40,621 nt of DNA, taken from contig JALWVW010000325.1 in assembly GCA_027079365.1 (NCBI GenBank), positions 1 through 40,621 on the forward strand, in the 5' to 3' direction. Both the position numbers and the translations under genes were made by a program. How positions within the stretch are numbered: the stretch's first letter is position 1; the number at the start of each line of letters is the position of its first letter. Positions 6,998-33,440 of this stretch are shown here, one piece after another. This DNA comes from Campylobacteraceae bacterium (lineage in GTDB: Bacteria; Campylobacterota; Campylobacteria; Campylobacterales; Sulfurovaceae). A model generated the notes under the pieces. The model saw only the letters and a program-made list of their open reading frames with translations. It did no database searches and was not told where the DNA came from.

Positions 6998-7055
6998 TGT
7001 TTACCTTCTACTTGTTTATCTCTTATGGTACTGTCTATAGTGCGTAATATTTATT

Positions 7056-7064
7056 TGGTATAAT
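7056..7064 (+). promoter_or_regulatory. extended -10 promoter element TGgTATAAT for the 7091 gene
   Basis: The sequence atttTGGTATAATaccc lies 27 nt upstream of GTG 7091. AAGGA at 7079-7083 serves as the RBS. Confidence 0.45.
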
Positions 7065-7090
7065 ACCCAAAATAGCCAAAAGGATAATAG

Positions 7091-14661: not shown

Positions 14662-15629
14662 AGTCTGAGGATCTTCTCGTCGACTTTGGAGATCGCAAGT
14701 GTCTTGATGATCTCCTGTGGGCTGAAGTAGCTTCCTTCCTCTCTGTCCAGTGCAGGATAGAGATAGACTTTGCAGTGTAGCTTAAAGTGTGTATAGGCAT
14801 GTGATACTTCCCCTAGATACTCTGCAGCGCATAGTGGTGCCTCCACAGCCTCAAAGCCCCAAAGCCCATGCAGAAACTTTCCTTTGCGCTGCGAGAGTGC
14901 CAGCTTGTCATTGTAGAGAGTGAGCATAATATACTGCTCTTTGGTTGGTACGGTGCGTTTCTTTCTGGTGGGGTAGATCAGGGGGGTGTTCTTCCCTGTA
15001 CATATCTCTTGTAGTGGGCAATACTCGCAAGAGGGATTAGTGGCGGTACAGACAGTAGCACCAATATCCATCATCGCCTGGTTGTAGTCAAAGGGATTCT
15101 CTCTGTCTATCATAGTATAGGCGATCTCCCAGAGTGCTTTGTCGGTAGGTGTTTTGAGCTGATGTAGGCGACAGAGGATACGCTTGACATTGGCCTCCAT
15201 GATAGGGACAGGCCGCCTGAAGGCAAAGGCAGCAACTGCGCGGGCAGTATTTTTGCCGATCCCAGGCAGTGCTACAAGTTCTTCTATCGTCGAGGGAAGT
15301 ACAGGAGGCAGACCTTGTACTTGTTGAGACAATATCTGTGCCGTTTTGTGCAGGTTTTTTGCCCGGTTATAGTAGCCTAGTCCTTCCCAGAGCTTCAATA
15401 CATCATCCAATGGTGCCTCTGCGAGATCCTTTAGTGTAGGAAAGCGTTTTAAAAAAGGAAAATAGTAGCGCTCCAGTACCGTGCGCACCTGTGTTTGCTG
15501 CAACATCACTTCAGAGAGGTAGATAGGATAGGGATCTTCTGTGGTGCGCCAGGGCAGGTCGAGCCTGCCATGGGTCTGGTACCATGTCTGTATATTATTA
15601 TGAATCTTTCTGAGCTGTGCTGTTTTCAT
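14643..15629 (-). CDS. mutY: A/G-specific adenine DNA glycosylase MutY
   Basis: Contains a PWR...PYPIYLSEVMLQQTQV N-terminus, the HhH-GPD motif LVALPGIGKNTARAVAAFAF, the Fe-S Cys loop CTATNPSCEYCPLQEIC, and a C-terminal NUDIX-like domain. Confidence 0.92.
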   Translation of the reverse strand: MKTAQLRKIHNNIQTWYQTHGRLDLPWRTTEDPYPIYLSEVMLQQTQVRTVLERYYFPFLKRFPTLKDLAEAPLDDVLKLWEGLGYYNRAKNLHKTAQILSQQVQGLPPVLPSTIEELVALPGIGKNTARAVAAFAFRRPVPIMEANVKRILCRLHQLKTPTDKALWEIAYTMIDRENPFDYNQAMMDIGATVCTATNPSCEYCPLQEICTGKNTPLIYPTRKKRTVPTKEQYIMLTLYNDKLALSQRKGKFLHGLWGFEAVEAPLCAAEYLGEVSHAYTHFKLHCKVYLYPALDREEGSYFSPQEIIKTLAISKVDEKILRLYLSCC

Positions 15630-15637
15630 GGGAGGGA

Positions 15638-16321
15638 TTATAGCATATTGCTGGCAACAGTATACCCCTTATTCTTTTGGTGTTCTATGAGTTCATATCC
15701 AACAGTTTTATTAAGGCGTGAAATGAGTGTTCTTAGTGTTCCTTCTTTGCCGTATCCTCCGTAGATGCAGTGGGATAGTTCGCCTTTGGAAAGCACTTTT
15801 CCGGCATGGGAACACATGTAGTCGAGTAAGAGCATACTCTTGATTCCTATATCTATTCTGCGTTTGTTTAGAAAGAGCTTCTGTTTATGGAGGTCATAGG
15901 TATAGCCATGTTTCAGATGCACTTGTGTTAATTTGTGGCAATCTCTGTTTTCTTTTCTTAAAGCCACTCTTAGGGTAGCAAGGATCTGCTCTTCTTTGTA
16001 AGGCTTAATCAAATAGTTGACAGCATTGGCATCCAGTGCATACTCTATCATCTCGGCTTCAGAATGCGCAGTTAGAAAGATAATTTTTGATACTGTAAGT
16101 GATGCTATTTTAAGTGCTGCTTCGCAACCACTTATGTTGTCTTTTAGCATAATATCCATAAAAATAATTTCTGGTTTCAATTGTACTGCTTTTTTTACCG
16201 CATCAGCACCGCTGTCGCATATACCCACAACAATAAATCCATTTTCTTCCAGAATTTCTTCCAAAAAAGCAGCAGGTATTTTTTCGTCCTCCACAATAAG
16301 TATCGTATTTTTATGTTTCAT
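15638..16321 (-). CDS. response regulator, receiver plus OmpR/PhoB-type winged-helix output
   Basis: Receiver motifs are ILIVEDEK...IIFMDIML...FLTAH. The C-terminus GKVLSKGELSHCIYGG...LRTLISRLNK...KGYTV looks like Trans_reg_C. The start overlaps the upstream kinase by 11 nt, and the stop lies 8 nt before the mutY start. Confidence 0.85.
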   Translation of the reverse strand: MKHKNTILIVEDEKIPAAFLEEILEENGFIVVGICDSGADAVKKAVQLKPEIIFMDIMLKDNISGCEAALKIASLTVSKIIFLTAHSEAEMIEYALDANAVNYLIKPYKEEQILATLRVALRKENRDCHKLTQVHLKHGYTYDLHKQKLFLNKRRIDIGIKSMLLLDYMCSHAGKVLSKGELSHCIYGGYGKEGTLRTLISRLNKTVGYELIEHQKNKGYTVASNML

Positions 16322-17456
16322 TTTTTGGTATCCTTATTGTATAGGAGAAACCATTTTTTGTACACCTATGCATCTGTGCCTGCAGATCTTCGACCATGAG
16401 GCTGATCAATCGAAAACCAAGCTTTCTTTCTCTTTTTGATTCTGTATTTTCTGTATAGCTATTGCCACTGTCACTATAGGTGTATCGGTAGCCTGCCTGT
16501 TCTTCATGGAGCCCTATTGTGATGTTTTTTGCATTGTCAACAAAAGCATATTTGATAGAGTTGAGTATAAGCTCGTTGCTGATGATACCAATGGATAGCG
16601 CCATATCAAAAGGCATCAATACAATATTGGAATGGATAACTACTTCGATATCATCAGATAGTTCGGTAGCTACAGCAGAAAGTTTTTTCAAGTATTTCTG
16701 CATATGTATAGTCTCAAGGTCATCGTATTTATAGAGGATCTCATGTACCATCGCAATGGTATCTATACGCAGTCTGTTCTTTCGAAAAACCTGCTTGACA
16801 CGACTATCTTTTTCTCTAAGCATCTGCATTCCCAGCATGGAGGAAATGATATTGAGATTGTTTTTCACTCTGTGATGTACCTCTTTTAGGAGTATCCCCT
16901 TTTGTCTATTGGCTGTCTGTAGCTTCCTGTATGATTCGTCTACGGCAAGATGGTAGATGATGCCGAACATAACGATAAGAAATGATGCAATGCCTATCGA
17001 AACAAGTTGTGCACTGTTGGGAAAGTTTTCAATATCGGAAAAGGTAAAATAGGCATGAAGGTACATGGTCACAACAATTATTTGATGGGTGAGGGTATAG
17101 AGCAGTGCCTTCTTGAAGCTTACCAGTAGAAAGTACCCCAGTGGTATAATAATATGATAAACAGAAACGCCAAAATGGTTTGTGTAAAGAAAGATATAAC
17201 TGCCGATGGTACTTGATAGCAGCACAAAGGCGCGACCGGCCTCCATGGTGCCTGTCTGTCTATAGTAGACAATACTTATAAGTATCATGACTGTAAATCC
17301 AGCCTCAATATAGGCATCGATATAGTTTCCTATGAAGGCATCCAATACCATAGCGACAACCATGACACAAAGAAGAATATAATGAAACCCGATTACCAGT
17401 AAATCTTCTTTGTCAAGTCCACTGCTGCATTGTTTGAGATATGTTATCAAATTCAT
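16311..17456 (-). CDS. membrane sensor histidine kinase, HisKA_2 type
   Basis: About 5-6 N-terminal TM helices with no large periplasmic loop. The H-box EVHHRVKNNLNIISSMLGMQ is diagnostic of HisKA_2. The N-box is NELILNSIKYAF. Confidence 0.85.
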   Translation of the reverse strand: MNLITYLKQCSSGLDKEDLLVIGFHYILLCVMVVAMVLDAFIGNYIDAYIEAGFTVMILISIVYYRQTGTMEAGRAFVLLSSTIGSYIFLYTNHFGVSVYHIIIPLGYFLLVSFKKALLYTLTHQIIVVTMYLHAYFTFSDIENFPNSAQLVSIGIASFLIVMFGIIYHLAVDESYRKLQTANRQKGILLKEVHHRVKNNLNIISSMLGMQMLREKDSRVKQVFRKNRLRIDTIAMVHEILYKYDDLETIHMQKYLKKLSAVATELSDDIEVVIHSNIVLMPFDMALSIGIISNELILNSIKYAFVDNAKNITIGLHEEQAGYRYTYSDSGNSYTENTESKRERKLGFRLISLMVEDLQAQMHRCTKNGFSYTIRIPKNET

Positions 17457-17494
17457 ATACCATTATACATAAATATAAGAAATACTATAACTGT

Positions 17495-18235
17495 CTAGTT
17501 TTTGATGCACCTGATTGGGATGCCATAGGAGGTATTTCCGATAAAGCCCGTTCTGCCCACATCACTAAATGTAAAACCTTTTGCCTGCACACCACTGTCG
17601 TTGACAATAAAATCACTAGACCATATTTTGGCTTGCGCTTCATCTCCCAGTAGAGAACCACCAAACGGCCATCTTACTCCTGATGAGGGGAGTTTTATAA
17701 AACTTTCAAATACAGCAAGATTGCTTGTGCTCCGGCTGGGAACCTCCTCGAAGATCTCATTGAATGTCGGGACTCTGAACCCATCAGGGCAGACAGAAGA
17801 GCCGTCTTTGCGATCCCAATACGCCTTGCGTTTAGTGCCATTTTCATCGTCTGTCGTCCATCCTGTACCACCTATAACAAACTTGCTTCCGGTTGATTCT
17901 ATATCGCCAATCTCAGTATCCTGGGTGGATGAACCTATCTTCTCATGCCCGTCTGATCCTCTTCCCCACTGGTAATAGTCTCCGTAGCAGGAGACGTCAT
18001 CAAAGCTTTCACAGGCTTGCTCAGCTCCTAGGTTTCTGTCCAGCCATGTTCTGTTTGTCTCCGGGGATTTCACAGTCTTGTATGTAAAATCCTTGTGGGT
18101 TATAGTGATGATATCACTTGCACCACCTGTGCCACCGGAAGACTCTTCATTGGAGCTGCCTCCACCCCCACAACCCATGACTAGCAGTGTGGTTGCTGCA
18201 CCTATGATAAATCTATTCTTGTGTAACTGTAACAT
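17495..18235 (-). CDS. lipoprotein with one FISUMP (Fibrobacter succinogenes major paralogous) domain
   Basis: Lipobox LLVMGC followed by a Gly/Ser linker. Domain pattern: YKTVKSP..RTWLDRNLGA...CYGDYYQWGR..DGH...CPDGFRVPT..E...LPSSG...IWSS...GIPIRCIKN. Confidence 0.8.
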   Translation of the reverse strand: MLQLHKNRFIIGAATTLLVMGCGGGGSSNEESSGGTGGASDIITITHKDFTYKTVKSPETNRTWLDRNLGAEQACESFDDVSCYGDYYQWGRGSDGHEKIGSSTQDTEIGDIESTGSKFVIGGTGWTTDDENGTKRKAYWDRKDGSSVCPDGFRVPTFNEIFEEVPSRSTSNLAVFESFIKLPSSGVRWPFGGSLLGDEAQAKIWSSDFIVNDSGVQAKGFTFSDVGRTGFIGNTSYGIPIRCIKN

Positions 18236-18258
18236 ATAAAACTCCTTTTATTTTTTGT

Positions 18259-20718
18259 TTAGTCTTTGATGCACCTGACATTGATGCCATACATGGCATA
18301 CACCGCCTGCGCAGTAATATAGCTTACCGGGTACCCGGTATTTTTGGAGAACTGTAGACTCATAGGTTTGGATGTGCCGTTGTTGTCCAAGGTATTGGCA
18401 TAGACAGAGCCCCTTCTTGCTCTGGTGTCATTGGGGTTAAACAGTCCACGTGTCCTCTCTTCGCCAGAAGGAAGCTTCAAGAAACTTTCAAAGACAGCAG
18501 AAGCATCTATGAGCCCTACTGATATCGTTTCGAGACGCAGTTCATTTATACTTGGTACTCTGTATCCTGTCGGACATATAGAACTACCGTCTGTTTTGGC
18601 CCATCTCTCCATCCGTCTTGTCCCGTTAGCATCATCTGTTGTCCAATCGGAAGCACCAATATCCTTGATGAAAAATTTCAATCCTGGATGATCAATATCG
18701 GCGATAGGTGTTTTCGTATATCTGGATGTCGGTATCTGATGTCCGTCTGTTCCTCTGCCCCATTGATAGTAGTCCCCAAAGCAGCTTGCGTCATCATAAC
18801 TTGTGCATAGACGAGAGGCTCCGAGATTTCTGTCAAGCCATACTCTGCCTGTATGCGGCGAGATGACAGTACCATATCCTATACCATTGTGTGTCATCTC
18901 TATGGTTTCATCTGCATCAAGTATGTTGATTGTGATAGTCTGTCTCGTTTCCTGCATGGTAGCATCTGTGACTATGGCGACAAAGCTGTAGGTTGTTTTC
19001 CCGCTTTCAAAGTCTGGAAGATCGATAAAGGTCACCACTCCTGTCTGGCTGTGCACCTGAAATAGGGAGGCATCATCTCCCTCCAGTGTATAGTGAACAT
19101 AGGTTTCTGAAGCAGCATGCAGTGTCATGGCTATACTGCTGTTTTCGAGTACATTTACTGAGCTTGGCGATGTGAATGCCAGTGGTATTTCAGCATTGTT
19201 GTCTAATATTTTGACTGTAACATTTTGTTCCCCTCTGTTTCCGCTGCTGTCTGTAGCGACTGCGGTAAAATGATAGCTAGGCTTCTGTTCATAATCAGGT
19301 GTATTCTCAAACTCTACTACACCAGTCAATGCATCTATACTGAAGCTGCCAGCATCGGTACCTTCTATGGTAAAGTGTAATGCACTCTGGTCAGTAGCGA
19401 CAACAGTAAATGAAGCTGAAGTATTATTCTCCTTGACTTGGAAAGTTGAAGGAGAGGTGAAGACCGGTATTTGTGTATCAGGAATATGCTGTATGCACCG
19501 TATGGGAAGCCCTCTGCTTCTTACTGCATTGTCCTTATAGGCTCTGCTACTGAGAAAACTCAGGTGCATAGCATGTGATCCCTCTACTGAGTTGACCCAC
19601 AGTGAAGCGACAGCCCCCGGATACACTGTACCGTCTCTATAGGCTCTATATCCGGAGGAGGGTAGCTTCAAGAAGCTTGCAAATGCGGCCAGATTAGAGT
19701 TTGTGGGGCTTTGCAGTGCGGTGGTTTCTGCCTCCAGTTCTTTCAGGATAGGTACCCTGAAGCCAGCAGGACATACCGTACTGCCATCTGTCATTGCCCA
19801 GACTGACTGGCGCAATACCCCCTCGGTGTCTGTACTGAGCCAGTCAGCGCTACCAGTGACAAAATTATCACTGCTCGCAGTAAGTTCGTCTTCCTGAGTC
19901 TGTGTTGTTGCAGAGGATGCCGTCTCGTGTCCGTCTGCCATTCTTCCCCATTGAAAATAATCTCCATAGCAGCTGATATCATCATGGGCAATACAGTCAA
20001 AGGAGGCACCAATATTTCTGTCCAGCCATACTCTGCCTGTGTGGGGTGAAACAACAGTATTGTACTCTGTATCACGATATATGATCTCTGCACTCTCTTC
20101 TCTGTCCAGGATAGTGATGGTGATAAGTACCTGTACACTTATAACGCCGGATGCATATTCTGCTGTAGCATAAAACTGATAAGATCTTTTCCGCTCATAG
20201 TCTGGTGCTTTGCGAAATACTACCAGACCTGTAGTTGTATTGAGGTCAAAGTATTTTGTATCTAGATCATAGATGTGGTAGTAGACCGTATCTTTACCTA
20301 TGGCAAACAGTTTAATAGCCGTTATGTTGTTCTCGTAGACACTTACGTTATTTTCGGAGATCATAATGGGAATATCGATGACAAGCTTAAATTTATCGAT
20401 GAGAGATTGTATTTTGTCACTGTTGTTGACATCCTCTGCTGTCAGTCCGCTTATGATGCGGTTGATATCCTCCAGATTCTCCTCATCGACACCTGAGACA
20501 CCCGCATCTCGATAATCCTGTACTTGAGGGATATCAGAATTGCTGCCGTTGCTTATGGCATATACTTTGATCTTCCCTATGGCTGTCTCCCGGACTTCTC
20601 CCTGTGAGGGCTGGTGTGTGCTGCTGTTCTCGTCCAGATCTATGCCGCCACCACAGGCGGTCAGTGCGATAGCAACTGCTGCTGCGGCAAGTAAGTCTCT
20701 TATTTTGGCTGAGATCAT
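18259..20718 (-). CDS. large lipoprotein: cadherin-like repeat, FISUMP, two cadherin-like repeats, FISUMP
   Basis: Lipobox IALTAC. Three cadherin-like repeats, for example FQVKENNTSASFTVVATDQSALHFTIEGTDAGSFSIDALTGVVEFENTPDYEQKPSYHFTAVATDSSGNRGEQNVTVKILD. Two FISUMP domains (VWLDRNIGAS...CYGDYFQWGR...CPAGFRVP...LPIRCIQH and VWLDRNLGAS...CFGDYYQWGR...CPTGYRVPS...INVRCIKD). AAAGGAG RBS. Confidence 0.85.
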   Translation of the reverse strand: MISAKIRDLLAAAAVAIALTACGGGIDLDENSSTHQPSQGEVRETAIGKIKVYAISNGSNSDIPQVQDYRDAGVSGVDEENLEDINRIISGLTAEDVNNSDKIQSLIDKFKLVIDIPIMISENNVSVYENNITAIKLFAIGKDTVYYHIYDLDTKYFDLNTTTGLVVFRKAPDYERKRSYQFYATAEYASGVISVQVLITITILDREESAEIIYRDTEYNTVVSPHTGRVWLDRNIGASFDCIAHDDISCYGDYFQWGRMADGHETASSATTQTQEDELTASSDNFVTGSADWLSTDTEGVLRQSVWAMTDGSTVCPAGFRVPILKELEAETTALQSPTNSNLAAFASFLKLPSSGYRAYRDGTVYPGAVASLWVNSVEGSHAMHLSFLSSRAYKDNAVRSRGLPIRCIQHIPDTQIPVFTSPSTFQVKENNTSASFTVVATDQSALHFTIEGTDAGSFSIDALTGVVEFENTPDYEQKPSYHFTAVATDSSGNRGEQNVTVKILDNNAEIPLAFTSPSSVNVLENSSIAMTLHAASETYVHYTLEGDDASLFQVHSQTGVVTFIDLPDFESGKTTYSFVAIVTDATMQETRQTITINILDADETIEMTHNGIGYGTVISPHTGRVWLDRNLGASRLCTSYDDASCFGDYYQWGRGTDGHQIPTSRYTKTPIADIDHPGLKFFIKDIGASDWTTDDANGTRRMERWAKTDGSSICPTGYRVPSINELRLETISVGLIDASAVFESFLKLPSGEERTRGLFNPNDTRARRGSVYANTLDNNGTSKPMSLQFSKNTGYPVSYITAQAVYAMYGINVRCIKD

Positions 20719-20865
20719 CTTTTCTCCTTTATAAAAAGTTATATATAGAAATTATATATGTTAATTTGTGACATGGATGTAACAGATGTATTTCTCAGCA
20801 TTGCATTGACTGAAGGGTAGACAAGACACCTTTTTATCCTTTAACACAGTTTTCATAGATACAGC

Positions 20866-20893
20866 ATGGCACAAGAGTGTCACGAAGTGTCAT
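20866..20893 (-). promoter_or_regulatory. 28-bp conserved operator-like element (copy A) upstream of the 819-aa lipoprotein gene
   Basis: ATGGCACAAGAGTGTCACGAAGTGTCAT matches 26 of 28 positions at 22796-22823. It contains GTGTCA direct repeats 10 bp apart (20877, 20887) plus an inverted arm ATG(G/A)CAC. It lies in the 271-bp gap between the TSP3 gene stop and the next gene start. Confidence 0.55.
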
Positions 20894-20938
20894 TGTGGGG
20901 AAATGTGTTGAGGGGGTTAAGGTGTACTTTGGGATGGT

Positions 20939-20972
20939 CAATACACTAGCCACTATACTGGCTAGTGTATTG
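20939..20972 (-). terminator. perfect 13-bp stem, 8-nt loop hairpin just downstream of the TSP3-repeat gene
   Basis: CAATACACTAGCC-actatact-GGCTAGTGTATTG begins 18 nt after the stop at 20990. No U-tract follows on the transcribed strand, so this may be a terminator, an attenuator or an mRNA-end stabiliser. Confidence 0.35.
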
Positions 20973-20989
20973 GGGAAGCGTACTTTGGT

Positions 20990-22726
20990 TTATTGTACGG
21001 TTGGATCGGTTGGGGCAGTATCTGTGTTATCAGGCACGCCATCACCGTCTGTATCTGCTTTGAGAGGGTCAGTTTCTCCGGCATCGACTACACCGTTGGC
21101 ATTGATATCCTCTGCACCATCAGGCAGACTATCACCATCCGTATCTGCCACTCTCGGATCGGTTTCTCCTGCATCAACGGTTGCGTTATTGTTTCTGTTT
21201 TCCTGTCCGTCACTCATACCATCACTATCCGTATCGAAATTCGTCGGGTCAGTACCCATCTGGAACTCTATGAGGTTGGCGACACCATCACCATCTGCGT
21301 CTTTCATGTCATCTGTAGTGCCGGTTGCACCAGTATCTGAAAGTGTGTCATTGGTTCCCAGCAGTGTCTCTTGAGCCAGTGTGAGCCCATCACTATCACT
21401 GTCATCAGCGCCATTGGTTACAGGATCATTAGGATTATTCGGATTGGTGCTAAATGTGGTCACTTCTGCACCATCACTAAGACCATCTCCATCGCTGTCT
21501 GCATTGGTCGGACTTGTACCGCCCAGTACCTCTTGCGCATTGGTGAGTCCATCATGGTCATCGTCATTGGCACCATTTGCTGTAGGAGAGTTGGCATCCA
21601 GCGGATTGGTAGGTGGTGTGGCTGCGATCTCTGCAGCATCAGTGATACCGTCATTGTCGTCATCTGGATCAATATTGTTACCCAGACCATCACCGTCGGT
21701 GTCTCTCCAGTCAGCTGCATTGAGTGGGAAGGCATCATTGGTGTCTGCAATACCGTCACCGTCATCATCCAAGTCAAAGTAGTTGGTGATACCATCAAGA
21801 TCTGTGTCTGCACATTCACCGCTTACTGTTGGACTGTTGGCATCGCTGGGATTGCTGCTGATAGAGGCTTCAAAGGGGTCGCTTAGGCAGTCTCCGTCTG
21901 TATCAGCATATACCATATTGAGAGGATCAGTGTCGCTGCTGTCTGGGATGCCGTCATTATCGTCATCCATGTCAGCACCATCCATAGTGCCATCACCATC
22001 TGTGTCAGCATTTCCATTGGTCTGTGGAGAGTTGAAGTCTGTTGGATCACTGCCTGCTGCTGCTTCCTGCGCATTGGTAAGTCCGTCAGCATCTGCATCA
22101 GCGCCTCCATTGACCGTAGGTACATTCACATCTGTAGGATCACTGTCCATACTATCGTTGAGTCCATCTCCATCTGTGTCGGGCACTGCAGCACTGGTGC
22201 CAGCCATGGCTTCCTGTGCATTGGTAAGTCCATCACCATCTGGATCTGCATCCCCAGCAGCTGTCGGATCATTTGCGTCATAAGGATTGGTTCCGTTTGT
22301 TGTCTCATCGGCATCACTGATTCCATCAAAGTCGCTGTCTGGTGATACCTGCACAGTGATCGTAACTGTAGCTGTATTGGAGCTGTCACCATCATCATCA
22401 TCAACGGTGTAGGTAAAGGTATCTGTACCTACAAAGCCGGAATTTGGGGTATAGGTGACCATACCAGCAGCTGTAGGTGCAGAGAGGCCACCACTGGCAG
22501 GTGTGCTTACGATCACCACAGTAGCCGCATCGACAGTGCCATCACTGTCTGTGTCATTGGCTACTACATTGATCGCAACAGCAGTACCAGCAGAGGTGGT
22601 TGCTGTATCGTTGGCAGCTACAGGTGCAATGTTGCCACCACCGCCACCGCCGCCACCGCCACCGCCACAGCCGGTTAGTATCAGCATGCTTGATGCAATG
22701 GTCGAGAGAAGTATATGATTTTTCAT
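20990..22726 (-). CDS. lipoprotein with cadherin/Ig-like N-domain and many thrombospondin type-3-like Ca-binding repeats
   Basis: Lipobox ILTGC followed by 11 Gly. VAANDTATTSAGTAVAINVVANDTDSDGTVD...FTYTVDDDDGDSSNTATVTITV is an adhesin-type beta domain. More than 15 DxDxDGxxDxxD units follow (DTDGDGLNDSMD, DDDNDGIPDSSD, DSDGDGLSDGAE, DTDGDGVPDNTD...). Confidence 0.85.
   Translation of the reverse strand: MKNHILLSTIASSMLILTGCGGGGGGGGGGGNIAPVAANDTATTSAGTAVAINVVANDTDSDGTVDAATVVIVSTPASGGLSAPTAAGMVTYTPNSGFVGTDTFTYTVDDDDGDSSNTATVTITVQVSPDSDFDGISDADETTNGTNPYDANDPTAAGDADPDGDGLTNAQEAMAGTSAAVPDTDGDGLNDSMDSDPTDVNVPTVNGGADADADGLTNAQEAAAGSDPTDFNSPQTNGNADTDGDGTMDGADMDDDNDGIPDSSDTDPLNMVYADTDGDCLSDPFEASISSNPSDANSPTVSGECADTDLDGITNYFDLDDDGDGIADTNDAFPLNAADWRDTDGDGLGNNIDPDDDNDGITDAAEIAATPPTNPLDANSPTANGANDDDHDGLTNAQEVLGGTSPTNADSDGDGLSDGAEVTTFSTNPNNPNDPVTNGADDSDSDGLTLAQETLLGTNDTLSDTGATGTTDDMKDADGDGVANLIEFQMGTDPTNFDTDSDGMSDGQENRNNNATVDAGETDPRVADTDGDSLPDGAEDINANGVVDAGETDPLKADTDGDGVPDNTDTAPTDPTVQ
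22634..22666 (-). repeat. (GGY)11 trinucleotide tract encoding the poly-Gly linker after the lipobox Cys
   Basis: The plus strand reads gcc acc acc gcc acc gcc gcc acc gcc acc gcc, and codon positions were checked against the start at 22726. It gives an in-frame run of 11 Gly directly after Cys20. Confidence 0.9.
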
Positions 22727-22795
22727 AAGATATCCTTTATGTTAAAATAGAATTTTAAAGCCACCGAAGGGGCACATCGCTTTTGATGCTGAAGT

Positions 22796-22823
22796 ATGAC
22801 ACAGGAGTGTCACGAAGTGTCAT
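22796..22823 (-). promoter_or_regulatory. 28-bp conserved operator-like element (copy B) upstream of the TSP3-repeat lipoprotein gene
   Basis: ATGACACAGGAGTGTCACGAAGTGTCAT has outer arms ATGACAC/GTGTCAT that are exact inverted repeats, plus an inner GTGTCA direct repeat with 10-bp spacing. It lies about 38 nt upstream of a TAAAAT -10 candidate, in the 123-bp gap between the regulator stop and the lipoprotein start. Confidence 0.55.
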
Positions 22824-22849
22824 GTGGATAAAAAGAGGGTATTGTGGGG

Positions 22850-23533
22850 CTACTTGAGCCGGTATCCTTTGCCATAGATACTGTCGATGCAGCCAGAGGG
22901 GAGTTTTTTGCGTAGGAGGCTAACCTGGTTTTTGACTGAGCCCAGTGAGATATCTCTCTCCCAGGCATCTTCCCAGAGTATGACCATAATATCTTCGTAG
23001 CAGACGAGCTCCGTTCTTTTATCTATAAGGAGTGCGAGAAGCTTGTACTCTTTTGCGGTAAGTGTCACCACTTTGCCGTGGAGATAGAGGATCTCTTCTT
23101 GCTTGTCCCATTGGCATTTGTGAGAGAGGGAAATAAAGCGCTTGGAGTCTTGGCTAAGCTCATTGGCTAGAAGCTGCATGGTCTCCTTGAAGGCCTTTGG
23201 CGTGATGGGCTTGATGAGGTATTTGGTCAGTTTGAGCTCTGTTGCGGTCAGAAGTTTCTCCTGTTCGGTATGTGCTGTGAGCATGATGATCTTGACACTT
23301 TTGTTGTCTTGACGGATCTCTTTAGCGACACTGAGCCCATCGATATAGGGAAGGTTGATATCCAGCAGTACCACATCGGGATGATATTTTTCATAGGAGG
23401 CTATCGCCTGGGCACCATCATCTGCTGTATAGACGGTACCAAAGAACTCCTGCAGGTACTCCACGAGATTGGCCTGGATATCCGGCTCATCCTCTACATA
23501 GAGGATAGTGTTATCTTTGAGTATCTCTAGCAT
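22850..23533 (-). CDS. OmpR/PhoB-family response regulator
   Basis: I prefer ATG 23533 (MLEILKDNTILYVEDEPD...), which is preceded by AAGGAG. Receiver motifs are VVLLDINLP and IIMLTAH. The winged helix reads LTAKEYKLLALLI...VKNQVSLLRKKL...IYGKGYRLK. Confidence 0.9.
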   Translation of the reverse strand: MLEILKDNTILYVEDEPDIQANLVEYLQEFFGTVYTADDGAQAIASYEKYHPDVVLLDINLPYIDGLSVAKEIRQDNKSVKIIMLTAHTEQEKLLTATELKLTKYLIKPITPKAFKETMQLLANELSQDSKRFISLSHKCQWDKQEEILYLHGKVVTLTAKEYKLLALLIDKRTELVCYEDIMVILWEDAWERDISLGSVKNQVSLLRKKLPSGCIDSIYGKGYRLK

Positions 23534-23564
23534 GAGGTCTCCTTTTTTCAAGTATATCCAGAAA

Positions 23565-23580
23565 GTGTCATGAACCGTCA
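23565..23580 (-). promoter_or_regulatory. weaker third copy of the (G/C)(T/C)GTCA 10-bp-spaced direct repeat, between kinase and regulator genes
   Basis: GTGTCATGAACCGTCA has the same orientation as copies A and B and lies 32-47 nt upstream of the regulator ATG. It could mark an internal or autoregulated promoter. Confidence 0.3.
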
Positions 23581-23614
23581 CTATTCTGCTGCGAATGATA
23601 TATCTAGAACATCT

Positions 23615-24997
23615 CTAAATGGTTGGTGGTATCATAGTGGAGAGGTTGGTAGGTATCTTGAGTGTAAAGCATGCACCTTCTGCTGTATTGGCAGCATACA
23701 GTCCTCCTCCCATATTGTGCTCTATAATGATCTTGGCGATATAGAGCCCCAGTCCGGTGCCCCCTGACTTGTTTTTGGTCGTATAGTAAGGGTTAAATAT
23801 CTTCTCCAGGTGCTCCAAGGCAATACCCCTGGCATTGTCATTGATCTCCAGCCATAGGGTATCTGATTTTTCATGGATCGTGATGTAGATTTTCTTTTTA
23901 TTGATCTCTCTGGTCTCTAGCGCCTCTTTGGCATTGTCCAGGAGGATGATCAGCACCTGTATCAGTTCATTCTTATAACCATAGATAGAGACTCGATACG
24001 GGTTTTGTACCTGTATATCGACCTCTTTTAGGGTGCCGGACATGAGCTTGAGTACCATGCGGAGCGCTGTGTGTATATCAAACTGTTGTTTCTGTTTTTT
24101 GGGCGTAAAAAGACCTCGAAAATCTTCGATGGTTTGTGACATATGGGTAGTAAGGTCGGAGAGCTCGTCTATCTTTTGTGTCAGGTATTTTTGATGTTTA
24201 CCCTCTGAGACACGGTCTATGTTGAGCAAGATGGCATTAATATTCATTAGTGGTTGTCGCCATTGGTGCGCAATGGAGTCGATCATTTCTCCCATGCTTG
24301 CCATGCGGCACTGGCGCAAGAGCATCTGCTCCTGTGCCAGCCTCTGGTTGACCTCCATCTCTACGCGTTGCTGTAGTGCTGCATTGAAGTGCGTGAGCTT
24401 CTCGGTCTTTTGTGTTACTTTTTGTTTCAGCTCTTGATTGTAGCGTACAAGGCGACGTTTCTCTGCCTCTTTAACCTGTTCGTAGGTGTACATCACAAAG
24501 GTAGTGATGAGAAATGCAGCGATCAATGTGACATATTCTGCCAGTGTATAGGGGTAGCCTGTGATAAGAAGATAGAAAATAAAGAGGCACACCATGACAA
24601 ACATGATCGTACCCCCAGTTCTGTTCAGGAAGAAAAAGATCAGGATAGGTGCAGAAATCACCCAGAGGATATTGAGATGATTCTGAGGAACATAAAAGAA
24701 AATCACCGCAGTGTAGCTAAAGAAAAGGATCATAAACCAGATAGAGTAGGCCTGATAGAGCCCTTTGTCATGTCTTAGTCTGAAAAATCCACCCAGTAGG
24801 AAGATACCCAGAAGGAGCTGACTAATGCCGACAATTAGGTTCCCCTCTCTTAGTCTAAACAGAGAAAAGGCAAGTACCCCCAACCCAAAGAAGAAGGAAA
24901 TGATCAGAATGGCAAAAATCTGGTGTTTGAGTATCCATTCTGTCTCATCAAACTGTTCTGATGATGAAAAAAACTGTATGAACTTCCGGAAGAGCAT
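23615..24997 (-). CDS. membrane sensor histidine kinase (multi-TM sensor, HisKA plus HATPase)
   Basis: About 6 TM helices in the first roughly 190 aa, then a coiled coil. H-box MGEMIDSIAHQWRQPL, N-box LIILLDNAKEAL, G-box TGLGLYIAKIIIE. It lies upstream of the regulator and is co-directional with it. Confidence 0.88.
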   Translation of the reverse strand: MLFRKFIQFFSSSEQFDETEWILKHQIFAILIISFFFGLGVLAFSLFRLREGNLIVGISQLLLGIFLLGGFFRLRHDKGLYQAYSIWFMILFFSYTAVIFFYVPQNHLNILWVISAPILIFFFLNRTGGTIMFVMVCLFIFYLLITGYPYTLAEYVTLIAAFLITTFVMYTYEQVKEAEKRRLVRYNQELKQKVTQKTEKLTHFNAALQQRVEMEVNQRLAQEQMLLRQCRMASMGEMIDSIAHQWRQPLMNINAILLNIDRVSEGKHQKYLTQKIDELSDLTTHMSQTIEDFRGLFTPKKQKQQFDIHTALRMVLKLMSGTLKEVDIQVQNPYRVSIYGYKNELIQVLIILLDNAKEALETREINKKKIYITIHEKSDTLWLEINDNARGIALEHLEKIFNPYYTTKNKSGGTGLGLYIAKIIIEHNMGGGLYAANTAEGACFTLKIPTNLSTMIPPTI

Positions 24998-25102: not shown

Positions 25103-27556
25103 GTGCACAGAAACTCTTTTGCAGTATACTTTTGTACCAAATTCCCTAAAAGACTAGCCGTGAACAGTATCAATGATTTTTTTTATACAGCCTGGAGTAG
25201 TGAGCCGGTATGTGCCATCTCCTCTGATCTCGAAGATAATCTTCTCAGTAGACTTCATGCGCAGGAGTATGATAGCTTTTGTGACAGGGCAGCCATGATA
25301 CTTTCGCTCTCCGCCTCCAATAGAGAGAAGTTTTTGCAGATTGCACCATTGGTGGAGAGTCTAAAGATTTTCTCTGAATATCCTAGTCAGAAGTTCGAGA
25401 GCACCGCAGAGATCTCTGCGGTGCAGTGTCGTTTGCTCTCCTATCTGATCAGTCAAGGCAACCCCATACTGAACAAGGCAATAGGGCAGAGGCTGGATGC
25501 ACTCCGAAAAGGCGGTGTCATAGGATATGATACTGCCAGAAAGCTTATCTCTATCCTGACACTTATTCCGGAGAAGCAAAAACAGAAGTCTCAGATACCC
25601 CAAATCCCTCTCGAGGATAGGGAAGTACATAGTGAAAAAGACAAAGATACGGTGCTGACATCCCAGGCGATAGCAGATGTGATGCTGTGGCTACAGGATG
25701 CCATAGAGATACCACAACTGAGGGAGAGACTAGCGAAGGTACCGGAGAAGATCAGGGCACAACGATTCTCTATCGGAGTGACAGGGGTAATGAATGCGGG
25801 AAAATCTACCATGCTTAATGCCTTGCTGGGTGAAGAGATCCTGGGGACAGCAGTGGTACCGGAAACTGCCAATCTAACACTTATCAAGTATGCATCAAAG
25901 CCCAAGGCAAAGGTGTATTTCTGGAGTGAGAAGGAGTGGCAGCAGATAGAGCGTAGCGCTGAGGTGCTGGCACCGATGCAGCACTTTGTAGAGCAGACAA
26001 GGGCACAGTTTGGCTCAGCATTGTCAGACTATATCACCCCAGAAGGCAGGGGAGAGGAGATAGCCGTAGAGGCACTTCCTTCCTATACCTCTGCCGCACA
26101 CTCTGAGGGGCGGTGTAATCTGGTCAAAAGTGTGGAGCTCTTCAGTGATCTGGCATGGGTGCAGGGGGGTGTGGAGATCGTAGATACACCGGGACTGGAT
26201 GATCCTGTCGTGCAGCGCGAAGAGATTACCAAGTCTTATCTGGCAGAGTGTGATCTGCTCTGTCATCTGATGAATGTGGGGCAGTCTGCGACGCAGAAGG
26301 ATGTGGAATTTATCATTGAGTCTCTGCTATACCGCAATGTAGCTCAGCTGCTGGTGGTAATCACCCGGATAGATATGGTGAGCGAAGAGGAGCTCTCTGA
26401 GGTGATCGCCTATACCAAGTCCAGTATCAAAGCCAGGCTGGAAGCACTGGAGCAGGGGGCGAGGTTTGATGCATTGGTGGCGCGCATTGTGTTTATTCCT
26501 ATTGCCGGAAAGATGGCACTGTGGCACCGTATAGGGCGGGCAGAGGAGGCACTGGCGCAGGGGTATGACCTGAATAAAAGTGGTATCGTGAAGATCGAAG
26601 CCTATCTCGATGAGGTGCTTTTCGGAGAGAACGCCCCCAAGGTAAGACTGATGATGGAGGCATCCCGCAAGGAGCTTCTGCAACTCATCCAGAGTCAGGA
26701 GAGGGCATACCGACAGGAGCAGAGACTCCTGAGCCAAAGTGCAGAAGAGATCGAAGCAGCCTATGTGCGCTATCAGGAGGAGCAGAAGCAGTCCCAAAAA
26801 GCAGACAAGAAGCTGCATCAGGAAATCGCACTCGCCAGGCATGAGCTGGAGAGCCACTTCGGACTGTTGCAAAAAGCCGCAAGCGAGAAGTTTCGCTCGC
26901 TTCAGAATCTGCTGACGAGACGGATCATGGATGATGTGCGTTATAGCCTAAGAAAAGAGAAGAAAAAGCCACTGCCCCAAAGGGTTGAAACGATGATTCA
27001 GACAGGGCTACAGGATGGATTGATCGACCTTTTGAGGGAATATCGCTATGGCTTCCAGAAGCGCATGAATCTGCTGCTGGAGAGAATGGCGAGAGAGTTT
27101 GAGGCTTTTTCGCAGACAGCAGAGGCGGAGACGCAGGAGAGCGCTAAGGCACTTTTTGAGAAGTACTTTGATCTGCTTTCGCTGACAGACTCTCATGCAG
27201 TACTGACTGCACAGACTAATCAAATAATCGCCAAGTCTTCTCCAAAGAGGTTGGAGGAATTGGAGGGACAGATACAGCAGGCATTTGCAGAGGCACTGGA
27301 GATTCTGGAAGAGAAGTTTCAGGCGCGCGTCACAGTACTCAATGGTGATCTGATTGAGGCATTTGAAATACGCTATAAGCAGCCACTGCTTAGGGCGGCC
27401 GAGGAGCGCGAAGCGCAGGAGAGCTTGTTGAAAAAATCTCTACAGAGAGTGCGAGAGAGCAGGTATGATGCCAGGGAGAGGATGCAACAGATAGAGAGAC
27501 AATTGATACTGCTTGCCCAGTCAGTAAGGCATCTGGATGCAGGAGGAGAGAGATGA
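25103..27556 (+). CDS. bacterial dynamin-like protein, DLP1-type (start codon uncertain)
   Basis: G1 GVTGVMNAGKST (25775-25810), G2 region PETANLT, G3 VDTPGLDD, G4 TRID, followed by a long E/Q/R/L-rich helical stalk. The listed start is GTG with no clear RBS; alternatives are GTG 25160 or a later ATG. Confidence 0.85.
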   Translation: MHRNSFAVYFCTKFPKRLAVNSINDFFYTAWSSEPVCAISSDLEDNLLSRLHAQEYDSFCDRAAMILSLSASNREKFLQIAPLVESLKIFSEYPSQKFESTAEISAVQCRLLSYLISQGNPILNKAIGQRLDALRKGGVIGYDTARKLISILTLIPEKQKQKSQIPQIPLEDREVHSEKDKDTVLTSQAIADVMLWLQDAIEIPQLRERLAKVPEKIRAQRFSIGVTGVMNAGKSTMLNALLGEEILGTAVVPETANLTLIKYASKPKAKVYFWSEKEWQQIERSAEVLAPMQHFVEQTRAQFGSALSDYITPEGRGEEIAVEALPSYTSAAHSEGRCNLVKSVELFSDLAWVQGGVEIVDTPGLDDPVVQREEITKSYLAECDLLCHLMNVGQSATQKDVEFIIESLLYRNVAQLLVVITRIDMVSEEELSEVIAYTKSSIKARLEALEQGARFDALVARIVFIPIAGKMALWHRIGRAEEALAQGYDLNKSGIVKIEAYLDEVLFGENAPKVRLMMEASRKELLQLIQSQERAYRQEQRLLSQSAEEIEAAYVRYQEEQKQSQKADKKLHQEIALARHELESHFGLLQKAASEKFRSLQNLLTRRIMDDVRYSLRKEKKKPLPQRVETMIQTGLQDGLIDLLREYRYGFQKRMNLLLERMAREFEAFSQTAEAETQESAKALFEKYFDLLSLTDSHAVLTAQTNQIIAKSSPKRLEELEGQIQQAFAEALEILEEKFQARVTVLNGDLIEAFEIRYKQPLLRAAEEREAQESLLKKSLQRVRESRYDARERMQQIERQLILLAQSVRHLDAGGER

Positions 27557-29565
27557 CACTGCTCGATCAGTTTATCGCTGCCTACCATGCAAAGTTTGCT
27601 GCGCCTGTTTCCCAGTTCGATACCACACTTTCAGGATGGGTAGAGAAGAGTAGTCATTTGCTGCTGGATGAGAAATTCTCTCCGCCCCCTGAGCTCAAAG
27701 GGAGACTTACGCAACTGTTAGCGCGTACCAAGGAACCCATGAAGGTAGCAGTCACAGGGCAGTTTTCCAGTGGTAAATCCACCTTTCTCAACGCACTGCT
27801 CTCCAAAAATGTACTGCCCACAGGGATCACACCGGTGACCTCCAAGGTCAACTACATCCGCTACGGTGATGCGTATAAGATGCGTATCCACTACAAGGAT
27901 GGAAGGGACGAATACCAGGATATCGCGCATATCGCCCGCTTCACAGATCAGCGTACTGAGGTAGAAGAAATCGCCTATCTGACACTCTATGCACCCCTTG
28001 AGTTACTCAAGGAGATCACCTTTGTTGATACGCCGGGGCTCAATTCCCAGGAAGAACGAGATACGACAGAGACACAAAAAGTCCTCCGAGAGGTGGACGG
28101 GATCATCTGGCTCTCACTGATAGACAATGCAGGCAAACTCAGTGAAGCACAAACGCTGGAGAAATATCTGGATCAGTATCAGGAGAAGTCTCTCTGCGTA
28201 TTGAACCAAAAAGACAAATTTACAGAGGCACAGGTTGCGCAGAGTGTCGCCTATGTGCAAGAGCATTTTGCTACATTCTTCTCTGAGGTCGTGCCTATCT
28301 CCGCCAAGCAGGCGCTGCTTGCACGAAGTCATGACAAGGTTCAGATGCTTGAGGAGAGCAAAGAAGCGTTTTTGTCCTCGCTGGATGAAAAGATCGACAG
28401 AGTAGAGCCTATGGAGATCCAGTCGGAGTATGAAAAATACCGCAAAAAAGTGCAAGAGATCCGCTCCGGTGACCTCTCTCAAAATAGTGTATTGCTTGAA
28501 GCCTCTAATATACAACGCGTCCTCTCCTTTATAGAGACACAGATCAGGCCAGTCGCTGACTCTGCCAAGGTATTTTCTATCAAGCGTGAAGTGGTGCAGA
28601 TTTGTACAGAGATCATCAGTCAACACCAGCTTTTTTTGCGTATCTATGACGAGCTCTCTATGCAGCTTCAGGCATTTGAAGAGGAAGCAGAGGAGGCGTT
28701 TGCACAGCTCAAGCAGCAGTTTGGTAAAAAACTTCAGGATGCTTATGCGCAGATAGAGGCGATGATCGCTGTGATTGCTGAGGATATCTATACCCATATC
28801 CATACAGTGGATCGTACACGCTATGTACCCAAAAAGAGTGGCATACTTAAAAAAGAGATACTGTATGAGGCCATATCTTACCAGCGTGCCAAAATTGACG
28901 CAGACCGGGTTTACAAGCATCTCTTTTATGAAGATGATGTGGTGGGTAAGCGCTTCAAGCACTATGTCAGAGGCCTCAAAGAGATCCAGCACGAGGTCAA
29001 TCAGCACAATGCCGAGGTCTACGAGATGCTCAAAAGACGAATACGCCAGTGGCAAACCCCTTATGAGCTTCTGCGCAAGCAGAATCCTGTGCACTCCTAT
29101 ATCGAGTTTGCTAATATCCGGAAGTTTGCCTCCAAGGCCTATGAGCATATACTCAAACCTTTTTCTGATGAGATTCATAGCTCTTATGCCCAGATCAGCT
29201 CGGAATTCAACCATCTTAGCTCTGCGGTACACTTCAACTATCAGAATGCCACGCAGGTGACTGTCGCCTTTTTGGAGCAGAAGATCGAGCAGTCAGCGAG
29301 CCTGTATGAGCAGGATCCGGCACGCTTCACCTGCTATACGCCCAAGCTTGAGGAGATCAAAGAGCGATTGGGGAGCAACTTTCATCTTTACGAGTTGCAG
29401 AATATGATGCAGGGGAACACAACCTTTTTGAGTAAAAATTATGATACACTCATGCGAGAATTTAAAGCGATCAAGCAGGAGAGGGAGTCCTTCATACAGC
29501 AGAGAAAAGTGCGACATGAAAAGACAATCGCCCTGCTTGAAGCGCATATCAAGGAACTAGGCTAG
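27553..29565 (+). CDS. bacterial dynamin-like protein, DLP2-type
   Basis: G1 GQFSSGKST (27757-27783), TPVTSKV, G3 VDTPGLNS, G4 NQKD, and a helical stalk. The start overlaps the DLP1 stop (ATGA). Confidence 0.9.
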   Translation: MTLLDQFIAAYHAKFAAPVSQFDTTLSGWVEKSSHLLLDEKFSPPPELKGRLTQLLARTKEPMKVAVTGQFSSGKSTFLNALLSKNVLPTGITPVTSKVNYIRYGDAYKMRIHYKDGRDEYQDIAHIARFTDQRTEVEEIAYLTLYAPLELLKEITFVDTPGLNSQEERDTTETQKVLREVDGIIWLSLIDNAGKLSEAQTLEKYLDQYQEKSLCVLNQKDKFTEAQVAQSVAYVQEHFATFFSEVVPISAKQALLARSHDKVQMLEESKEAFLSSLDEKIDRVEPMEIQSEYEKYRKKVQEIRSGDLSQNSVLLEASNIQRVLSFIETQIRPVADSAKVFSIKREVVQICTEIISQHQLFLRIYDELSMQLQAFEEEAEEAFAQLKQQFGKKLQDAYAQIEAMIAVIAEDIYTHIHTVDRTRYVPKKSGILKKEILYEAISYQRAKIDADRVYKHLFYEDDVVGKRFKHYVRGLKEIQHEVNQHNAEVYEMLKRRIRQWQTPYELLRKQNPVHSYIEFANIRKFASKAYEHILKPFSDEIHSSYAQISSEFNHLSSAVHFNYQNATQVTVAFLEQKIEQSASLYEQDPARFTCYTPKLEEIKERLGSNFHLYELQNMMQGNTTFLSKNYDTLMREFKAIKQERESFIQQRKVRHEKTIALLEAHIKELG

Positions 29566-31356: not shown

Positions 31357-31385
31357 CTAGTTATAGATTCAGAAGAGGAACAGCA

Positions 31386-33360: not shown

Positions 33361-33370
33361 TCATCTTGGA

Positions 33371-33403
33371 TTTCATTTTCAAATCATTTTCAATTCATTT
33401 TCA
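33371..33403 (+). promoter_or_regulatory. three tandem 11-bp repeats (TTTCATTTTCA / AATCATTTTCA / ATTCATTTTCA) upstream of the multihaem cytochrome gene
   Basis: The array starts 11 nt after the kinase stop and ends 37 nt before ATG 33441. It shares its core with 30553-30574. Confidence 0.55.
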
Positions 33404-33440
33404 GAAGTTAGAATATCCTATCTGATAGAAGGAGATGAAA

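Follow-up and report, generated by a model that had tools for sequence, protein, structure and literature searches.

We analyzed a 40,621-nucleotide stretch of DNA (the window) from a Campylobacteraceae bacterium of the Sulfurovaceae lineage. It holds a run of minus-strand genes encoding two-component systems and lipoproteins. The run begins with a sensor histidine kinase (HK1) and an OmpR/PhoB-family response regulator (RR1), continues with genes for a TSP3-repeat lipoprotein, an 819-aa lipoprotein of cadherin and FISUMP domains and a 246-aa FISUMP lipoprotein, and ends with a second kinase and regulator (HK2 and RR2). It is probable that this locus is a two-layer composite with a role in regulated attachment or matrix binding, in which a FISUMP cassette with its own regulator pair is nested within an HK1-RR1 regulon. 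Its most likely role would be to remodel, under the control of a sensor, the adhesion and matrix proteins of the envelope or surface. A sequence-only reading of this DNA had described the first five genes as a self-contained unit with a shared operator. All five co-directional open reading frames (ORFs) are present, with one probable change of start codon.

The signature of the regulon is a 30-nt promoter module. The 28-mer ATGACACTTCGTGACACTCYTGTGYCAT lies upstream of both the TSP3 and the 819-aa gene, occurring twice in the window against 0 expected; it holds two TGACAC repeats 10 bp apart and a -10-like hexamer (CATACT or CATGCT) 8 nt past the second repeat. A diverged copy (TGACGGTTCATGACACTTTCTGGATATACT) before RR1 keeps the repeat spacing and the 8-nt gap to a -10-like hexamer, and the shared operator is present in three copies rather than two. 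The 246-aa gene has no copy of its own. Fifteen sites aligned without gaps give the consensus TTACACTTCnTTACACTCTTnTGTCATACT, with 12 invariant columns. The repeats are predicted to lie at roughly -36 to -21, as in PhoB-type class II promoters.

Related loci were compared according to the identity of their kinase to the window HK1: L002 (92%), L003 (67%), L006 (64%, a Sulfurovaceae metagenome-assembled genome), L004 (58%) and L007 (54%). In each, between one and three genes for large lipoproteins, every one headed by the module, come after a kinase, in some cases a second kinase (HK'), and a regulator, and the gene after the first kinase, be it the regulator or HK', also has a copy. Six orthologous loci of Sulfurovaceae type hold the module at matching positions: the position of copy 1 is kept before the regulator in L002, L004 and L007 and before the second kinase in L003 and L006, and copy 2 is kept at the same place in L002. 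The strict pattern TGACAC-N4-TGACAC had no match in the related loci, the relatives carrying TTACAC or single changes; a degenerate regular expression recovered 10 sites and a looser one 23 in approximately 1.3 Mb of comparison DNA plus the window. All of these sites fell in orthologous or regulon loci, each ahead of a gene on its coding strand, and none in the approximately 77 paralog loci sharing only the kinase core, which served as a negative control; a scan of genomes with the kinase alignment had returned mostly such paralogs, and only L006-L008 as full-length orthologs. When metagenomes were scanned with the module, eight contigs were returned, with the module ahead of a signal-peptide ORF in 8/8 and a lipobox with glycine tether in 7/8. 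A published description of this regulon or module was not found in the limited collection of literature searched.

The genes behind the module vary. L006 has three consecutive lipoprotein genes with one module each, encoding a 1096-aa lipoprotein with a true Lcl_C domain at its end (74 bits, which passes the cut-off), a 926-aa lipoprotein without a Pfam match and an ortholog of the TSP3 protein (71% identical); the L003 and L004 cargo includes members of the 1096-aa and 926-aa families. The conserved core is the HK1-RR1 pair with variable lipoprotein cargo. Because the module is kept in both position and sequence across orthologous loci, RR1 is likely to control the lipoprotein genes, and the comparative evidence that it would do so through the repeats is strong, if indirect. 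Copy 1 is predicted to be the autoregulatory promoter of RR1. The earlier proposal that a kinase-regulator pair heads a set of glycine-tethered lipoproteins built from calcium-binding or extracellular modules is supported. As a separate observation, the cargo family of approximately 920 aa (L006 16966-19746; L003 6986-9751) has no Pfam match and carries an HSTGG motif that recalls the nucleophile elbow of alpha/beta-hydrolases.

The N-terminal part of HK1 consists of approximately six closely packed transmembrane (TM) helices (residues 27-169) and, by hydropathy, has no large periplasmic loop. It scores 21.2 bits against MASE6 (PF20966; cut-off 27.4), and most of its orthologs have a precomputed PF20966 hit; nothing relevant to MASE6 was found in the literature searched. 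The H-box reads SIAHQWRQPL and the C-terminal HATPase_c domain scores 74.1 bits in Pfam. Full-length orthologs are many, at 92-50% identity. RR1 has the Pfam domains Response_reg (92.3 bits) and Trans_reg_C (45 bits) and, with the adjacently encoded HATPase_c kinase, makes up an OmpR/PhoB-family pair. Its recognition helix SVKNQVSLLRKKLP is near-invariant among orthologs and, because all of these begin at an equivalent methionine, RR1 itself probably begins at the ATG at 23533. Its NCBIfam scores fall far short of all equivalog cut-offs, and RR1 is therefore not orthologous to a named regulator or system.

We propose that HK1, a membrane-embedded, MASE6-like sensor without a periplasmic domain, would phosphorylate RR1, which would then bind the direct repeats T[G/T]ACAC-N4-T[G/T]ACAC in the -35 region of the fixed module. 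The weak -10 (CATACT), exactly 8 nt past the second repeat, would make transcription activator-dependent, as it is at the pho boxes bound by PhoB. One module copy ahead of RR1 would provide autoregulation, and one ahead of each cargo gene would bring under control large lipoproteins that vary between loci and have a cysteine and glycine-rich tether, represented in the window by the TSP3 calcium-binding lipoprotein.

The second layer is a cassette of four genes on one strand: the 819-aa gene, the 246-aa gene, HK2 (HisKA_2, with a multi-TM N-terminus) and RR2. The 246-aa gene begins 23 nt past the 819-aa stop codon and, given this short gap and the lack of a module of its own, it is probably co-transcribed with the 819-aa gene; RR2 ends 8 nt before mutY. 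In L002 the gene order is dynamin-like, HK, RR, TSP3 and MutY, with RR 98.7% and MutY 82% identical to the window proteins, and blastn breakpoints show 215 bp in place of the accessory segment listed in Table 1, with no cadherin-FISUMP, FISUMP or second two-component system genes. Module copy 3 sits 35 nt inside the segment that L002 lacks. L094 has the same four-gene order at 90.5% nucleotide identity (HK2 94% and RR2 100% identical as proteins), also followed by mutY. In L095 all four cassette genes are found between the genes for NAD synthase (NadE) and LpxB at a uniform 57-58% protein identity (57% for the full-length, 810-aa ortholog of the 819-aa protein, 58% for HK2 and 57% for RR2), and its 9.5-kb contig has neither HK1/RR1 nor an HK1/RR1-type module. 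L098 encodes a HisKA_2 kinase-regulator pair (kinase 37% identical to HK2) next to a pair of FISUMP lipoprotein genes. At three further FISUMP loci no two-component system adjoins; the Poseidonibacter cadherin-FISUMP homolog P0014 is an example without such a neighbor and so says nothing about the unit. Because the same genes recur with HK2-RR2 in another genomic context and are missing from a close relative, gene neighborhoods place the FISUMP genes in a separate cassette with its own regulator pair, which was either inserted in the window lineage or deleted in L002.

These comparisons do not agree with a self-contained unit of five genes: HK2-RR2 (15638-17456) directly follows on the same strand and travels with both FISUMP genes, L002 lacks the last two of the five, and L095 has those two with HK2-RR2 and without HK1/RR1. 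That the five genes HK1-RR1-TSP3-819-246 form a single horizontally mobile, self-contained island is very improbable. They are co-directional, tightly packed and equipped with a common operator, but they were seen together only in this lineage, L002 having the first three (with TSP3 degraded) and L095 and L098 the last two with other two-component systems. Furthermore, HK1-RR1 lies in conserved chromosomal synteny, and no integrase or transposase was found near the locus within the window. Two observations on the cassette and its relatives are recorded here. The GC content is 0.38-0.40 over HK2/RR2 (window 15500-17500) versus 0.44-0.51 over the neighboring lipoprotein genes and mutY, which could stem from foreign ancestry of the cassette or from the composition of membrane proteins. 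In L098, an identical stretch of approximately 100 nt (…GAAACAGAACACTTACGTCATTATTTTTTCTTATAATATAAAC…; 6990-7075 and 7900-8000), different in sequence from the 30-nt module, precedes each of the two adjacent FISUMP genes.

The 819-aa gene appears to have tandem promoters, the distal HK1/RR1 module and a proximal, native promoter. The proximal region aligns with that upstream of the L095 810-aa gene (TGTCACATTGATGTGACG...TATACAAT), a weak comparison of two sequences only. It is conceivable, though in our judgment unlikely, that the cadherin-FISUMP and FISUMP genes are driven by HK2-RR2 alone from the proximal promoter and that the distal module is the relic of a former cargo promoter. This would fit with the retention of the cassette without HK1/RR1 or module in L095, the related arrangement in L098 and the alignment of the proximal promoter regions, as well as with the degraded -10 (CATGCT) of the distal copy and its long 144-nt leader, in which an SD-like (Shine-Dalgarno-like) TAAAGGATAAAAAGGTG resembles cargo-gene starts. 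However, both repeats of the distal copy are perfect, and over the 28-nt core it agrees with the TSP3 copy at 26/28 positions whereas the flanks are only approximately 65% identical, the pattern expected under site selection. In the two-layer model that we prefer, the layer 1 module upstream of the native promoter of the four-gene cassette, which lies between the TSP3 gene and mutY, would allow HK1/RR1 to switch on the cassette together with its second two-component system, resulting in tandem promoters and possibly a cascade.

Between the distal module and the proximal promoter, at window 20828-20850 on the minus strand, the sequence TTAAAGGATAAAAAGGTG, after which comes an ORF of only 23 codons, is similar to the Shine-Dalgarno and start regions of other cargo genes, such as GATAAAAGGATCAAAGATG in L006, and may be what is left of the start of a cargo gene since lost. 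A TGTYACA palindrome present in both proximal promoters (window and L095) was considered as an HK2/RR2 operator and dropped, as it is not found in the L098 intergenic regions.

Lipoprotein status was read from sequence, using [LVI][ASTVI][GAS]C at the end of the signal peptide as the lipobox criterion. A lipobox cysteine followed by a glycine run, as the sequence-only reading had noted, was read in all three effectors, each after a hydrophobic N-terminus: LVMGC-GGGG (lipobox VMGC, Cys22) in the 246-aa protein, ALTAC-GGG (LTAC, Cys22) in the 819-aa protein and ILTGC-G11 (LTGC, Cys20) in the TSP3 protein. After an unassigned region (residues 40-115), the 819-aa protein consists of cadherin repeat A (115-205), FISUMP-like domain 1 (212-411), cadherin repeats B (415-505) and C (510-600) and FISUMP-like domain 2 (602-819), an order that had been proposed from the letters and that internal BLAST confirms. 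A single FISUMP-like domain makes up the 246-aa protein, which is 42-43% identical to residues 212-411 and 602-819 of the larger protein. Against Cadherin (PF00028, threshold 28.8), repeat B (425-504) scores 56.6 bits and repeats A and C alone 17.2 and 21.6, and internal BLAST finds A and C homologous to B (E 2e-15 and 4e-23). The calcium-binding motifs V.EN, PDYE/PDFE and ILD(R/N/A)(E/N/D) are at the expected places; DxNDN is incomplete.

Of the domains named by the sequence-only reading, TSP3 and Cadherin exceeded their Pfam cut-offs, whereas FISUMP did not reach its curated ones: the 819-aa protein scores 25.7 versus 33.9 for PF09603 and 34.7 versus 41.65 for TIGR02145, and the 246-aa protein scores 28.4 versus 41.65 for TIGR02145 and has no Pfam hit at E<=0.01. 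The E-values of the FISUMP models are significant (2.8e-8 to 1.6e-5), and homologs are named "TIGR02145 family" or "FISUMP domain-containing" in databases. The AlphaFold model of the 246-aa protein (pLDDT, predicted local distance difference test, 86) has one significant match in BFVD, the phage protein A0A6J5LVS1, annotated as "Fibrobacter succinogenes major paralogous domain" (E 7.5e-6, probability 1.0). Because 53 of 60 aligned homologs match PF09603 (best 4.4e-9) and the predicted structure matches a FISUMP phage protein, the assignment of the window domains to a divergent FISUMP subfamily appears sound. Clustered at 50%, this subfamily comprises 13,816 representatives. The sequence-only reading had placed FISUMP outside Campylobacterota; this view does not hold, as homologs carry the names Sulfurimonas, Sulfurovum, Poseidonibacter and Campylobacterota, and FISUMP-cadherin combinations are frequent in Campylobacterota and in thiotrophic symbionts.

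The window FISUMP-like domains are approximately 200 aa long with a long insert (residues ~95-130). Four cysteines occupy equivalent positions in all three, and C75, C83, C149 and C243 are invariant across the 60 homologs. Fib_succ_major, DUF1566 and DUF823 have been grouped as one C-type-lectin-type class of ligand-binding domains, often found in lipoproteins with conserved cysteines (PMC5758913), and the DUF1566-containing C-terminal domain (CTD) of Lcl is C-type-lectin-like and binds glycosaminoglycans (PMC11162425). Among the weak Foldseek matches to the PDB, ranks 1-4 and approximately one-third of the top 50 are C-type-lectin-like, with the Lcl-CTD (8q4e) at rank 2. When the FISUMP alignment was used for a sequence-profile search of the PDB, nothing was hit, and Lcl_C (PF07603) is matched by 1 of the 60 homologs. 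The C-type-lectin assignment is suggestive, its main supports being the literature and the enrichment of such proteins among weak fold matches.

Fib_succ_major/DUF1566-type domains are also a recognized class of variable proteins of diversity-generating retroelements (DGRs) (PMC5758913), which raises the idea that the FISUMP domains are DGR targets and the locus a hypervariable receptor system. We consider this extremely improbable. No reverse-transcriptase domain was found by Pfam among window ORFs of at least 150 aa not nested in a longer ORF, a search that did not include template repeats, and the 42-43% identity of the three FISUMP-like domains extends over their whole length, the divergence not being confined to the C-terminus.

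The TSP3 protein has an immunoglobulin-like (Ig-like) Big_9/Cadherin_5 domain (32-125) after the lipobox and the run of 11 glycines, followed by approximately 18-20 repeats of the calcium-binding type DxDxDGxxDxxE. TSP3_bac (PF18884) scores 56.9 bits against a cut-off of 25 over 10 stretches, and there are 15 strict DxDxDGxxDxxE motifs (~24 loose DxDxD). The composition is 19.4% aspartate and 1% lysine plus arginine, with an isoelectric point of ~4. Directly 3' of the stop codon, a stable hairpin with a stem of up to 14 bp (-23.4 kcal/mol, z = -7.6) and no T-run probably marks a transcript end or acts as a stabilizer, separating the TSP3 transcript from the 819 promoter; an equivalent inverted repeat is present in L002. 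The L002 ortholog (~69% identical) has a 346-bp deletion that removes the start codon, signal peptide and Ig-like domain (L002 4400-5700; window 22405-22750) and a frame change near 5275, and its promoter module is intact. Either the gene is decaying or the assembly is in error, and the damage points to decay in the L002 lineage.

The products of the composite locus would be outer-membrane-anchored, disulfide-bonded proteins in which calcium-dependent rigid spacers (cadherin and TSP3) carry C-type-lectin-like FISUMP heads, and they would serve regulated attachment or matrix binding. We infer RR1 binding and activation, localization, calcium binding, the ligand and the signal. Several points weigh against this interpretation. 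The link between RR1 and the module comes entirely from comparative genomics; the 819 copy, with its weaker -10 and its distance from the ATG, could be a relic; and the metagenome scan found no other FISUMP or cadherin gene behind the module, so that the link between the layers is visible in this lineage only. The glycine at +2 could by default leave the lipoproteins facing the periplasm, and sequence does not predict surface exposure. The calcium-binding motifs of the cadherin repeats are just partly canonical. Foldseek against the PDB gave nothing at E<1e-3 (best E 0.39, template modelling score at most 0.4), and hhalign to the L006 Lcl_C aligned 15 columns only, with a probability of 30%, around the motif [FW]R[LV]PT..EL.

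The question of localization gives rise to a different explanation, to which we give little credence: the lipoproteins would face the periplasm and act in calcium buffering or as a scaffold between outer membrane and cell wall, within an envelope-stress regulon and not as surface adhesins. HK1 has no periplasmic domain and may sense the state of the membrane or envelope, no sequence feature demonstrates export to the cell surface, the extreme acidity of the TSP3 protein would suit an ion buffer, and other cargo (the L006 926-aa protein with its hydrolase-like HSTGG motif and the 1096-aa family) is not obviously adhesive. On the other hand, cadherin, Ig-like and C-type-lectin-type FISUMP/Lcl_C modules typify surface or secreted binding proteins, LdtA and CglD, which have related modules, are surface-exposed lipoproteins, and FISUMP homologs are fused to inverse-autotransporter passengers in thiotrophic symbionts. 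A possible but tentative extension of the two-layer model is that the locus represents a "plug-in" surface-coat regulon of Sulfurovaceae-type vent bacteria, in which one conserved, intramembrane-sensing kinase-regulator pair would drive interchangeable large glycine-tethered lipoproteins whose genes would be recruited by the portable 30-nt module, and that capture of the adhesin cassette along with its own two-component system created a two-tier cascade for lectin-type (FISUMP) attachment to a host, mineral or sulfur surface.

The features of the locus are collected in Table 1. The setting is chromosomal: mraW, a surA-like gene, ftsA, ftsZ, ppx and mutY flank the locus at one end, and at the other end are sbmA and a pair of dynamin-like genes. 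The position of HK1-RR1 between the dynamin-like pair and mutY is conserved across relatives, and the genome that matched best is a metagenome-assembled one of Sulfurovaceae. Rfam and tRNA scans of the window gave no matches.

Table 1. Coordinates of the regulatory, lipoprotein and cassette features in the window
Feature	Position	Strand	Details
HK1 sensor kinase gene	23615..24997	-	460 aa; Pfam HATPase_c, hydropathy, orthologs
RR1 OmpR/PhoB-family regulator gene	22850..23533	-	227 aa from the probable ATG; listed ORF runs to GTG at 23581
Promoter module copy 1 (TGACGGTTCATGACACTTTCTGGATATACT)	23551..23580	-	between HK1 stop and RR1 ATG
Promoter module copy 2 (TGACACTTCGTGACACTCCTGTGTCATACT)	22793..22822	-	ends ~66 nt upstream of TSP3 start codon
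TSP3 lipoprotein gene	20990..22726	-	578 aa; Pfam, composition, orthologs
Stable hairpin	20943..20968	-	directly 3' of TSP3 stop codon
Promoter module copy 3 (TGACACTTCGTGACACTCTTGTGCCATGCT), distal 819 promoter	20863..20892	-	ends 144 nt upstream of ATG
Candidate proximal, cassette-native promoter (TGTTACATCCATGTCACA...TATATAAT)	20751..20784	-	alignment to L095 upstream region
819-aa cadherin-FISUMP lipoprotein gene	18259..20718	-	Pfam, NCBIfam, internal BLAST, L095 ortholog
246-aa FISUMP-like lipoprotein gene	17495..18235	-	NCBIfam, internal BLAST, AlphaFold model
HK2 HisKA_2-type kinase gene	16311..17456	-	381 aa; HisKA_2 79.8 bits
RR2 OmpR-type regulator gene	15638..16321	-	227 aa; overlaps HK2 by 11 nt
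Accessory cassette segment	15654..20927	.	5,274 bp; distal module, 819, 246, HK2, RR2; blastn breakpoints versus L002

Other genes of the window deserve mention. Divergent from HK1 are two consecutive bacterial dynamin-like GTPase genes (Dynamin_N; 817 and 670 aa; 25103-29565, plus strand), whose adjacency to HK1 is kept in L002, L003 and L006, marking them as long-standing neighbors. A third two-component system (OmpR-type regulator 31353-32042, HisKA kinase 31948-33360) precedes the gene for a 628-aa multihaem cytochrome that has MtrC/MtrF-like domains II/IV (whole region 31353-35321, plus strand), which could be a regulated extracellular electron-transfer protein. A complete, arginine-kinase-like ATP:guanido phosphotransferase, an enzyme uncommon in bacteria, is encoded at 35399-36430 (minus strand; N- and C-terminal domains 268 and 93 bits). 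There is also a hybrid GAF-HisKA-HATPase-receiver kinase (37492-39546, minus strand) and a small PAS protein (39693-40193, plus strand). Signaling genes are unusually dense, with at least four kinases in 40 kb.

The Sulfurovaceae are dominant, mostly uncultured colonizers of vent surfaces and animals, and the HK1 signal, if found, would show when these bacteria alter their surface. To our knowledge, the FISUMP/DUF1566-type family is very large with almost no functional data. The components of the locus are individually ordinary, and its value lies in a tractable definition of a regulon rather than in a new mechanism: a short, highly specific promoter signature predicts co-regulated lipoproteins and can be searched for in any metagenome or metatranscriptome, and the FISUMP-cadherin cassette is a natural presence/absence polymorphism among closely related JOHN19-1 assemblies, which come from one and the same sampling project.

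The TSP3 protein recalls Myxococcus xanthus CglD, a TSP3/COMP-like, calcium-binding surface lipoprotein adhesin whose action is calcium-dependent (bioRxiv 10.1101/2023.10.19.562135): both are lipoproteins with a long DxDxDG run, and residues 320-569 match the CglD model of NCBIfam (E 3e-30). The match is confined to the repeats, however. Unlike CglD, the window protein has a Big_9/cadherin-like Ig domain at its N-terminus and lacks both VWA/MIDAS, Pfam finding no VWA, and EGF-like domains, and gliding machinery is not encoded nearby. Membership in the CglD family was rejected on the score (104.8 versus an equivalog cut-off of 400 for NF033765) and the lack of VWA; the MtsD (43.9 versus 800) and MtsC (17.9 versus 350) cut-offs were also missed. 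The cadherin repeats can be compared with the Rap cadherin-like (CHDL) lectins of Rhizobium leguminosarum, calcium-associated proteins implicated in matrix or surface attachment as cited within PMC10045233, which also reports that a cadherin-repeat protein of Sulfurovum indicum is mildly induced on elemental sulfur, a precedent in Sulfurovum for a response to a solid substrate. The Rap proteins differ from the window lipoproteins in being type I-secreted, without a FISUMP domain or a known dedicated two-component system.

LdtA of Legionella is a DGR-diversified surface lipoprotein with a domain of the Fib_succ_major/DUF1566 class (PMC5758913). The window proteins share with LdtA and the Lcl-CTD a lipoprotein signal, conserved cysteine pairs, the motif [FW]R[LV]PT..EL...RC[IV] and the position of the domain at the tip of Ig/cadherin-type stalks, and one member of the L006 regulon has a true Lcl_C domain. 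They differ in having no DGR, no collagen-like stalk and FISUMP scores below the cut-offs, and the Lcl-CTD itself has no disulfides.

The closest parallel for the regulatory layer is found in the PhoB/OmpR class II systems and, within Campylobacterota, in DccRS of Campylobacter jejuni, an OmpR-like system that activates a handful of genes for periplasmic and membrane proteins (PMC9449129). Shared with these are an OmpR-family regulator beside its kinase, a pair of direct hexamer repeats with 10-bp spacing in place of the -35, a small regulon of envelope proteins and probable autoregulation. In contrast to them, the window system has a MASE6-like sensor of approximately six TM helices and TKACAC repeats, every target is a glycine-tethered lipoprotein adjoining the two-component system, and the entire 30-nt module including the -10 has been copied near-verbatim ahead of each gene. 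The system is an OmpR-type regulon of envelope lipoproteins of a familiar kind, set apart by its unusually stereotyped module and by the nested adhesin cassette with a two-component system of its own.

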